Position numbers and translations under genes: made by a program
Notes under the pieces: model-generated
Databases searched by the model: none
Told to the model about the DNA's origin: nothing
The model's input: the letters and a program-made list of their open reading frames with translations, nothing else
Assembly: GCA_003246365.1 (NCBI GenBank)
Contig: QKAN01000053.1
Span: forward strand, 15,842-79,841
Direction: 5' to 3'
Length of the DNA: 64,000 bases
DNA from: Clostridia bacterium
GTDB lineage: Bacteria; Bacillota; Clostridia; Christensenellales; CAG-138
In this document: positions 35,538 through 37,450 of the stretch, piece after piece
How positions within the stretch are numbered: position 1 is the stretch's first letter
How the letters are laid out: every line of letters begins with the position of its first letter

Positions 35538-35557
35538 AAAATCATAGTATAGATTAG

Positions 35558-35596
35558 TAAAAAGGCGAGCAGTGTATAAACGCTGCTCGCCTAAAA
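35558..35596. terminator. bidirectional intrinsic terminator
   Basis: AGGCGAGCAG-TGTATAAACG-CTGCTCGCCT, with TTTTT on the minus strand and an A/T-rich tail on the plus strand. Confidence 0.7.
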
Positions 35597-35605
35597 TAAT
35601 GTTTT

Positions 35606-35776
35606 CTATCTCATCTTGCTTGCATGAACAGAAGTAGCTAGGTTATTATACGCGTCTTTTTTCCAATCAGGCCACCTCATGATTTCACCTTTTATCTCTT
35701 GGTACTTAACCGTATGTCCCGTTTGATTTTTTTGTTTCGAATACTGTGTGCTCTTTGATTTTGATACGGTTCCCAT
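35606..35776 (-). CDS. 56-codon basic small ORF coupled to the deaminase gene (not in ORF track)
   Basis: My translation: MGTVSKSKSTQYSKQKNQTGHTVKYQEIKGEIMRWPDWKKDAYNNLATSVHASKMR*. ATG 35776 lies 3 nt after the TAA of 35780..37240. GGAGGAG (the last codons of the upstream gene) lies 6 nt before it. The only terminator follows this ORF. Confidence 0.5.
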   Translation of the reverse strand: MGTVSKSKSTQYSKQKNQTGHTVKYQEIKGEIMRWPDWKKDAYNNLATSVHASKMR

Positions 35777-35779
35777 ATC

Positions 35780-37240
35780 TTACTCCTCCGTTATATTTGA
35801 TGTTTCGTCCTCAAAAATTATTCTTGTAGCATATTCACTTTCCAAGTACGTTAGTAAAGACATTGGGCTACGTAATGAGGCTGTTTCGGAATCCCAGTCT
35901 GCTTTTGTTCCATCATCTTTTTTTCTAGTTCTAGAATAACATTTTCTTGATTTCATAGCAAACAAATCTATATACTTACTTGGCCCAACGCCTACGAATG
36001 GTTCAAATAAAACTTTTTCTTTTTCAAACCGATTTGAAATTTCAGTTTTATAGAAGTCAAATGTCTTACTCTTTGGATAAGGCTCAATATATACAACTCG
36101 CTTTATACCAGCAGCAATAATATGTTTTGCACAATTGTGGCACGGAAAAGTAGTAACAAATAATTCAGCACCTTCGCATGAAATATTGTTCCTTGAGCAC
36201 ATAAGTAATGCTTCCATTTCTGCATGAACAACACGACCATATTCAGTCAGATCACCAATTCCTGCCTTCTTCACAGCTTCAATGTTCGCATTTGTACTAC
36301 TCTTTTTTAATGATTTCAGTATTGCTTCAATTATCTTTTTTTGTTCAATTTTATTACGATCATATCCATTAGTATAATCTCGTCCCCCATCTATGTCAGA
36401 AAAAGCCCCATCGATTTGTTGAATAGGCCAATATAACCCACCAAATGCTTTAGGACAATCATTTACACCCGATGCAAGGATTTCGTTGTTTTTCGCTATT
36501 ACAGCTCCAACTTGGCGAGATAAATCCGCAGAACGTAGTGATGTTGCATATGCCATAAACATAGCATATTCGTCAAAACTCGGTGTATAAAATGGTTCTC
36601 CAAATAACAAGTCCATTAGGCGAGATACACAATTCTTGATATAATCATTGCTGTCTTTGATATCAAAAAAATAGTCAGATAATTGAAAAGCTTCTTGAGT
36701 GTGTTGACCGTGTCCTATATTCTCATTTTCATCTCGATCAAGTAGTTCTTGTGCTTTGTTTTCAGGGATACCCTTCCGTTTCAAGAAACTTATTCTTCTT
36801 TCATAACTACTTGTTATACCAAGAAAATGCGCTCCATCTCCATATATTGCTCGAAGTCTTTGAACCTCTGATGGATGCTTTATGGATTTTACAATATAAG
36901 CGACTCTTTTTCTTGGAGCTTGTTGCAAACCGAGTACTTCTCTTTTTTGATTCACATAAGCCGCAACACCGCTCATTAATACTGAATTGTCATGCGCCTC
37001 TTTCCTAATTCTATTGCCTAAACCCATGTAGTGACTGATTCTATCGTATTCGTTCATACCTTCAGGACGAAAATTCGGTTCAAACTGAGATAGGATATCT
37101 TTGGAAACCGAAATTACTTCTGTTGAATAATGGAACTTGTTCAAGCAATCTTTCATAATCGAAATTAAATCTTCAACATCAGTTCCAACAGTAGTAATTA
37201 AGCCTAATACAAGTTCACTATCATTTGTAAAAATTGTCAT
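35780..37240 (-). CDS. AvcD/DcdV-like kinase-like + cytidine/dCMP deaminase fusion (anti-phage dCTP deaminase family)
   Basis: 486 aa, AT-rich. Deaminase zinc motifs HAE ('GRVVHAEMEALL') and PCxxC ('TFPCHNCAKHIIAAGIKRVVYIEPYP'). The N-terminal 230 aa begins 'LVLGLITTVGTD' in the P-loop position. AAAGGTG upstream. Confidence 0.8.
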   Translation of the reverse strand: MTIFTNDSELVLGLITTVGTDVEDLISIMKDCLNKFHYSTEVISVSKDILSQFEPNFRPEGMNEYDRISHYMGLGNRIRKEAHDNSVLMSGVAAYVNQKREVLGLQQAPRKRVAYIVKSIKHPSEVQRLRAIYGDGAHFLGITSSYERRISFLKRKGIPENKAQELLDRDENENIGHGQHTQEAFQLSDYFFDIKDSNDYIKNCVSRLMDLLFGEPFYTPSFDEYAMFMAYATSLRSADLSRQVGAVIAKNNEILASGVNDCPKAFGGLYWPIQQIDGAFSDIDGGRDYTNGYDRNKIEQKKIIEAILKSLKKSSTNANIEAVKKAGIGDLTEYGRVVHAEMEALLMCSRNNISCEGAELFVTTFPCHNCAKHIIAAGIKRVVYIEPYPKSKTFDFYKTEISNRFEKEKVLFEPFVGVGPSKYIDLFAMKSRKCYSRTRKKDDGTKADWDSETASLRSPMSLLTYLESEYATRIIFEDETSNITEE

Positions 37241-37391
37241 ATTACACCTTTGAAATGAAATGTATGATTATATATTAGTTTATACTGGAGAATAAGAATC
37301 TGCAAGAACTAATTATAACAGTATTCATCTCATAGTTTATATTTGTAATAAAACAACATCTCGAGCTATAATTCATAGAAAATATTAGAGA

Positions 37392-37420
37392 CCCCGCAGC
37401 TCACACCGCGGGGTTTTATT
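37392..37420. terminator. GC-rich hairpin (hutI terminator; also terminator-like on the plus strand)
   Basis: CCCCGC-AGCTCACAC-CGCGGGG with TTTTATT on the plus side. Confidence 0.6.
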
Positions 37421-37450
37421 CATCCAACTCTAATTAAATAACCAAAAAAA

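Follow-up and report, generated by a model that had tools for sequence, protein, structure and literature searches.

Known dCTP Deaminase Defence Systems

The dCTP deaminases are a textbook case of defence by nucleotide depletion, and the ways in which they are silenced and triggered remain unsettled. Reviews either describe the trigger as unknown or generalise from the Vibrio small RNA AvcI. Specifically, the trigger or sensing step is given as "Unknown" in a 2026 review, and a small RNA is the only means of control mentioned in a 2025 review. In the preprint of Tal et al. (2022), the dCTP deaminase system was handled as a single gene and cloned with its promoter region. AvcID (DcdV-DifV), found in Vibrio cholerae and its relatives, is a type III toxin-antitoxin (TA) system in which a small co-transcribed element beside the enzyme restrains it, and activation follows the shut-off of host transcription. 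According to the AvcID preprint, this element, AvcI (DifV), lies 5' of the deaminase gene in the same orientation and works as an RNA, with a minimal functional length of about 170 nt. AvcI was first taken for a small ORF and was only later shown to function as RNA. A further layout for comparison is that of the toxin-first type II TA pairs, such as higBA, hicAB and mqsRA, in which an enzyme toxin and then a small protein are encoded by translationally coupled genes. Some TA defences are known to be countered by antitoxin mimics that phages encode.

The locus described here lies in a 64,000-nt stretch of DNA from a Clostridia bacterium, the whole of which is called the window below. Its enzyme has the architecture and catalytic motifs of the dCTP deaminases of Tal et al. 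and likewise lies in a horizontally acquired islet. However, those systems are catalogued as one gene, whereas the window and the clade surrounding it possess a two-gene operon that includes a conserved small protein. The enzyme is also homologous to the AvcID toxin, with 31-34% identity to AvcI-type enzymes. In contrast to AvcI, which is an RNA encoded 5' of avcD, the small element of the window is 3' of the deaminase gene and is under selection at the protein level. The 5' leader of the window, about 150 nt from an upstream hairpin to the deaminase ATG, contains no ORF and no Rfam family, and the 5' sRNA expected of AvcID is therefore not met. Nor is the expectation that the antitoxin acts as RNA, given a dN/dS of 0.08, invariant W/P/W residues and the existence of a translated fusion. 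The layout of a type II TA pair, with adjacent and coupled genes for a toxin and a small protein, is met by the 3-nt gap, the Shine-Dalgarno sequence within the deaminase gene and the one shared terminator, with co-transcription being inferred. The pair differs from toxin-first type II systems in that no recognisable DNA-binding domain was found in the small protein by Pfam and NCBIfam searches and in that a covalent fusion exists. Moreover, binding and lability are inferred only by analogy.

A search of the literature, including the papers on AvcID, the preprint of Tal et al. and recent reviews, found no description of a protein partner, and none of the Pfam, NCBIfam and PADLOC models matched any of 40 members of the family to which the small protein belongs. 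The suggestion in the initial annotation that a protein partner would be a previously undescribed variant of this defence family is thus supported. What is new is a protein-partnered, two-gene form of dCTP-deaminase defence, in which the second gene is demonstrated and its partnership with the enzyme is inferred. The deaminase itself was already known. A protein partner conserved in the largest clade would be a concrete and easily testable candidate for the control step, and detection tools that look for one gene would miss half of the system.

The Deaminase Gene and the Small ORF

The product of the upstream gene belongs to the AvcD/DCD kind of anti-phage dCTP deaminases, as shown by its matches to the PADLOC dCTPase model PDLC02373 (E = 4.9e-152, residues 6-471) and to Pfam dCMP_cyt_deam_1 (PF00383; E = 7e-19). 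Its zinc-binding catalytic motifs, VHAEME (HAE) and PCHNCAKH (PCHNC), are intact, and the columns of these motifs are invariant across 65 relatives. Depletion of dCTP and phage resistance are inferred from this family membership. One related deaminase, from a Clostridiales metagenome-assembled genome (MAG; L004:3001-4461), is interrupted in frame by one stop at about codon 54 of the match, with an intact WPxWK ORF downstream. This stop could reflect a pseudogene, a sequencing error or recoding.

The features of the locus are collected in Table 1. The initial annotation had claimed a 56-codon frame 3 nt after the deaminase stop, with a GGAGGAG Shine-Dalgarno sequence 6 nt before its ATG, an intrinsic terminator that is the only one on this strand and lies 3' of the small ORF, and the AT-rich composition of the surrounding islet. 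The coordinates, gap, length and peptide held in full, as did the other three claims. The TAA of the deaminase occupies 35782-35780, the ATG of the small ORF begins 3 nt further on at 35776, and the frame then continues to 35606. Both genes are in the same reading frame, separated by the deaminase stop. The encoded protein is basic. At about 36% G+C, the small ORF has the composition of the islet rather than that of the flanks (about 60%), and at islet composition the probability that a 56-codon frame is open by chance is about 0.01.

Table 1. Features of the two-gene cassette, in positions of the window.
Feature	Positions	Strand	Basis
AT-rich inserted cassette, about 1.9 kb, about 36% G+C in a genome of about 60% G+C	35538..37450		Composition, flanks
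Intrinsic terminator of the two-gene operon: 9-bp G+C-rich stem, 10-nt loop, UUUUU	35559..35591	-	Fold
Small ORF, 56 aa, WPxWK family (W35-P36-D37-W38-K39), predicted alpha-hairpin	35606..35776	-	ORF translation, homologues, AlphaFold
GGAGGAG Shine-Dalgarno sequence for the small ORF, inside the last deaminase codons, 6 nt 5' of the ATG	35783..35789	-	Read from sequence
Anti-phage dCTP deaminase, 486 aa: N-terminal P-loop-kinase-like domain and C-terminal zinc deaminase domain	35780..37240	-	PADLOC, Pfam, motifs, AlphaFold
TATAAT, -10-like element of the putative cassette promoter; conserved in L081/L082	37312..37317	-	Leader alignment; consensus match only, no transcription data
G+C-rich hairpin CCCCGCGGTGTGAGCTGCGGGG at the 5' edge of the cassette; conserved in L081/L082	37392..37413	-	Leader alignment

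No hairpin occurs in the window sequence between the deaminase gene and the small ORF. The hairpin of the downstream terminator (35591-35564) has a dG of -22.8 kcal/mol and a z of -6.8, and none of 200 shuffled sequences was equally stable. A consensus terminator scan did not call it, the sole cause being a loop over the length limit of the scan. The two genes form a translationally coupled operon with a single promoter and a single terminator, although co-transcription is inferred in the absence of transcription data.

Conservation of the Small Protein

In a direct search of 5.8 billion proteins, the window peptide found a single close relative, which had 80% identity and an identical two-gene layout. 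When the peptide was compared by tblastn with 80 deaminase loci from species-representative genomes, matches on the same strand and just 3' of the deaminase were obtained in the nearest 25 or so. A motif-anchored pass extended this to 77 of 81 related loci, in which a homologous ORF of 49-76 codons lies at or overlaps the deaminase stop; at one additional locus it is fused to the enzyme. In almost all of the 77 loci the small ORF starts between -31 and +39 nt from that stop, and all three relative reading frames occur among them. These loci are found in Bacillota, Planctomycetota, Myxococcota, Desulfobacterota, Pseudomonas, Acinetobacter, Vibrio, Yersinia, Morganella, Photorhabdus and others. 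In E. coli O157:H7, a homologous gene of 57 aa lies 3' of an "anti-phage dCTP deaminase" and is labelled "hypothetical protein" by RefSeq/PGAP. Hence, the description of the small ORF as unannotated holds for the window but not everywhere.

The proteins share an amphipathic helix followed by W-P-x-W-[KR]. The 40-member alignment (A1) that defines this otherwise unnamed WPxWK family shows no variation at W35, P36 or W38, and conservation of K39 is 90% or more. The window peptide has both the helix with W-P-x-W-[KR] and the expected genomic location, directly after a dCTP deaminase gene of this clade. The W/P/W invariants are kept in genomes from 36% to more than 60% G+C and in all three relative frames. 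Between the small ORFs of the window and of L081, a related locus, dN/dS is 0.08, and 24 of the 35 nucleotide differences are at third codon positions. Other pairs range from 0.03 to 0.55, the lowest values equalling those of the deaminase itself. Conservation downstream of orthologous deaminases with a synonymous bias, which the initial annotation had proposed as a check, was therefore found. These comparative data show that the small ORF is a real protein gene under purifying selection at the protein level, although no expression data are available. Because both dN/dS and the third-position bias reflect selection on the protein, a purely RNA element or a chance ORF is essentially ruled out.

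A profile search of 1.84 billion representative proteins returned 1,107 clusters at E <= 1e-3. Most members are 50-70 aa long, and some are tandem doubles or lie within longer proteins. The family is mostly basic, with a median pI of 9.6. In a census of the phylum, the module was found in only 2 of 401 genomes, which is too sparse for co-occurrence statistics.

Distribution on the Enzyme Tree

In a tree of 100 deaminases, the partner occurs throughout the large clade that contains the window. Its losses comprise one monophyletic sub-clade and two sporadic cases (L014 and L062), in addition to the one fusion (L064). The partner-less sub-clade includes a 589-aa "anti-phage dCTP deaminase" from E. 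coli and 11 metagenomic loci, and no hidden small ORF was found downstream of the E. coli enzyme. Since the enzymes of this sub-clade retain all of the catalytic residues, the deaminase can exist without the partner, which is clade-specific rather than universal among deaminases. The clade of the window excludes the AvcI-type enzymes, whose genes are on an IncI1 plasmid and on small plasmids of enterobacteria. Their loci, including L107 and L108, possess the 5' small ORF, and WPxWK is encoded in no frame. A Vibrio plasmid enzyme that belongs to the clade of the window has an unannotated WPAWK ORF downstream. Equivalence of the small ORF with AvcI was rejected on the grounds of position, coding selection and absence from AvcI-type loci.

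Only 3 of the 486 alignment columns discriminate between partner-bearing and partner-less enzymes, and of these only R169 is a non-conservative difference. This residue (codon 36734-36736 in the window) closes the second LID helix in the kinase-like domain. Of 84 partner-bearing enzymes, 83 have R here; all 12 members of the partner-less clade have I, T or V, and L014, an independent loss, has Q. L062 and L114 are exceptions to the rule. R169 may thus be a contact or switch residue, an inference that rests on sequence alone. The published AvcI-insensitive substitution K201R was described as lying between the two LID helices. Because this substitution also falls in the LID module, the LID could plausibly be a shared regulatory surface. 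This possibility depends on a mapping of K201R that was inferred from residue offsets, without alignment to the V. cholerae sequence.

Throughout the partner-less sub-clade (12 of 12 enzymes), the kinase-like domain is preceded by an N-terminal domain of about 110 aa (...GeWD.SQ.NKKV.R.NGG..NW..STG.i.FQG...). The domain was seen at L095:1565-1900 and at the N-termini of L116-L125, L052, L036, L040 and L062. As a simple replacement for the partner this domain was rejected, since it is also present on some partner-bearing enzymes.

Fusion and Structure Prediction

The deaminase of Methylocucumis oryzae Sn10-6 (L064, 527 aa) carries the module as its C-terminal tail, ...KQWPNWKKNVLGTF, in one clean frame. 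This fusion provides Rosetta-stone support for an interaction between partner and enzyme, but it is a single case and there are no binding data. No further fusions were found among 16 metagenomic relatives, and a region-restricted search found no natural fusion close to the window peptide; L064 itself came from inspection of the exceptions. The small ORF was also considered as a C-terminal extension of the deaminase or the product of a split gene. This was rejected, because its frame relative to the deaminase varies among loci, with all three represented, and an overlap with the stop is frequent.

For the small protein alone, AlphaFold with the family alignment predicts helices at residues 11-33 and 37-55 joined by a turn at W35-P36, with a core pLDDT of 80-89. 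No PDB chain was found by sequence and no BFVD structure by fold. In a read-through fusion of the window genes, with the TAA read as G and 65 alignment rows, the enzyme was predicted with a pTM of 0.85 and the linker was disordered. The peptide core reached a pLDDT of 60-74 and did not dock confidently on the monomer. Only four of the rows contained a peptide, and the enzyme is probably oligomeric. The run was based on a deep receptor alignment to which four fusion rows belonged, and not on a paired-MSA multimer. An unpaired pseudo-complex alignment was dropped, since MAFFT invariably drew the peptides onto the G-G-x-Y-W-P motif of the enzyme or left their N-termini scattered.

The Mobile Cassette

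The cassette is flanked by a phosphoglucomutase-family gene and an amidohydrolase gene, and it is absent from all 18 genomes of the same genus that were searched. The empty site is represented in several of these genomes, where the flanking genes are adjacent; in one of them (G001) the gap is about 110 nt. A second copy of the phosphoglucomutase-family gene, with 84% identity, is present on another contig of the assembly (G000:C28:2273-3819). The MAG is 87% complete with 6.5% contamination, and a mixture of strains or species is possible.

The boundaries of the mobile unit are indicated by two other loci, L081 and L082, in which different genes flank the cassette. Homology with the window begins at the 5' hairpin and stops at the end of the small ORF, and it includes the G+C-rich hairpin, the TATAAT element, the ribosome-binding site and both genes. 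After the small ORF, a terminator hairpin of different sequence occurs at the same place. Because these elements are shared despite the different flanks, the mobile unit consists of the hairpin, promoter, deaminase, small ORF and terminator. This comparison shows that the small ORF travels with the deaminase as one cassette with a single promoter and a single terminator. The upstream hairpin at 37392-37413, being conserved in another genomic context, belongs to the cassette and not to the neighbouring amidohydrolase gene. It may act as an insulating terminator.

In E. coli O157:H7 FRIK944, the pair is in a P4-like satellite (L083:383-5828), with psu and ogr-delta genes on one side and an integrase at tRNA-Sec on the other. 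The accessions of the two E. coli proteins are WP_000704989.1 and WP_000021256.1. P4-like satellite sites at tRNA-Sec are a known type of hotspot for defence cargo.

Occurrence of the Module in Phages

The module is also found away from deaminases. The genomic context was readable for 10 family members, 3 of which follow a deaminase while 7 are in phage-like arrays. Neighbouring genes in these arrays include PolA/ExoX/UDG, PolIII-alpha/ligase, RNA ligase/Ro60, HNH, radical SAM and a P22-like gene. When IMG/VR was scanned with the back-translated motif W-P-E-W-K-Q-x-x-L-G, 13 matches were obtained, all with the full module and 12 without a deaminase. Among cultured lytic phages, gp73 of the Xanthomonas jumbo phage XbC2 is 37 aa long and is essentially the bare module, and Vibrio phage P018-4 encodes the module at the N-terminus of a 178-aa protein. 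The helix and W-P-x-W-K-Q are contained in three PHROGs families of unknown function, phrog_38465, phrog_29728 and phrog_30995, from which the clostridial-type variant of the window is too diverged to be matched. In these families the module is like that of the window family, but it occurs by itself or joined to other phage domains and lacks a neighbouring deaminase gene. Such small phage proteins become candidate anti-defence factors.

A different association is seen at L110:1781-2471 (also L111:509-1199), where a 99-aa protein (P0003) consists of two tandem WPxWK modules and its gene has an 8-nt overlap with the end of the gene for a 132-aa NUDIX hydrolase. Pairing of the module is thus perhaps not limited to the deaminase and may extend to other nucleotide hydrolases.

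Proposed Function of the Small Protein

Based on the current evidence, the small protein is best regarded as a dedicated partner that binds and gates the dCTP deaminases of this clade. We assign this reading a probability of roughly 0.6; binding and gating are both inferred, and there are no expression data. The initial annotation had likewise proposed a small protein partner, either an inhibitor/antitoxin or a sensor adaptor. Conservation supports the partnership, and the choice between these roles is a matter of inference only. An antitoxin-like inhibition is the direction that we favour, but we do so tentatively, with the balance of evidence giving it no clear majority. According to this proposal, the small protein would bind the deaminase, with the LID region of its kinase-like domain as a possible site, and would serve as a brake produced in step with the enzyme, and in stoichiometric amounts, through translational coupling. 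When infection halts host gene expression, the brake would be lost or displaced and the deamination of dCTP released. The small protein would thus fill the role that the 5' sRNA AvcI has in AvcID systems, and the orphan modules of phages would be counter-defence mimics that hold the deaminase off. Inhibition is favoured because AvcI-type and WPxWK-type loci are alternative arrangements around homologous enzymes that are toxic if unchecked. In addition, coupling allows stoichiometric co-production, and the phage copies make sense as antitoxin mimics. Several observations count against this reading of the small protein. The read-through prediction did not dock the peptide confidently, a whole sub-clade of catalytically intact enzymes lacks the partner, the R169 association has exceptions, and only one fusion was found. 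A covalent fusion does not fit a simple model of a labile antitoxin that is degraded, and the coupling to a NUDIX gene together with the common orphans raises the possibility that the role of the module is more general.

Alternatively, the small protein may act positively, as a sensor or adaptor that turns the deaminase on when it recognises a sign of infection, for instance a phage protein or the state of the host machinery for transcription or replication. The tight synteny, the translational coupling and the C-terminal fusion would suit an activating domain equally well, and the reviews leave the sensing step unknown. Fused sensor tails are found in other defence toxins, for example CapRel. 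Very strong conservation of the module core in phages and across phyla also points to a ligand that is itself conserved. However, orphan copies of an activator would be self-harming for a phage unless they were dominant-negative decoys, and the partner-less sub-clade retains an intact enzyme. Nor did the AlphaFold read-through fusion give a docking signal in either direction. A less likely explanation is that the module has a function of its own that does not involve the deaminase, for example the binding of a host or phage factor or of nucleic acid, and is often merely carried along by mobile defence cassettes and by accessory regions of phages. Its predominance away from deaminases among the sampled members (7 of 10, and 12 of 13 viral matches), the tandem form after the NUDIX gene, the basic character of most of the family and the lack of docking in the read-through prediction, with its few peptide rows, are in its favour. 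A passenger, however, would not be expected to retain, in 77 of 81 loci from many phyla, a start codon that overlaps the deaminase stop, to be the sole other gene in a minimal 1.9-kb cassette, or to fuse to the enzyme; nor would its loss be structured by clade on the enzyme tree.

Two further explanations would deny the small ORF a protein function altogether. In one, the incidental open frame lies in a region that functions as an RNA, equivalent to the AvcI sRNA but located 3' of the enzyme gene. The precedent is AvcI itself, which at first sight was a small ORF. This explanation is very unlikely, given that AvcI is 5' of avcD and that AvcI-type loci have no WPxWK frame. The third-position bias and low dN/dS also oppose it, as do the amino-acid invariants kept across the range of G+C and across frames, the lack of an Rfam match and the existence of a fused, translated form in L064. 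In the other, the AT-rich DNA merely happens to contain an open frame here. It is indeed short, below the usual cut-offs for gene calling and without expression data, but all of the conservation evidence is contrary and openness alone has a probability of about 0.01, so that chance is all but excluded.

Beyond the preferred reading of a dedicated partner, a bolder one is conceivable. Defence systems and phages might share the WPxWK hairpin as a portable gate that, in the cell, holds off nucleotide-destroying enzymes such as the deaminase and perhaps the L110 NUDIX hydrolase. The phage modules might then act as a surrogate brake by antitoxin mimicry, or they might associate with the host copy and draw it away from the enzyme, in which case the module itself would serve as the infection sensor. 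If this were true, the largest clade of a "single-gene" defence would be a protein-regulated two-component system in a direct arms race with phage homologues.

Larger proteins that contain the module were also encountered. In three IMG/VR contigs (L133, L135 and L139), it is inside proteins of 250-300 aa with CxxC pairs and coiled-coil segments, which correspond to phrog_30653 and phrog_29728, both of unknown function. DUF551 is another fusion partner of the module (P0086).
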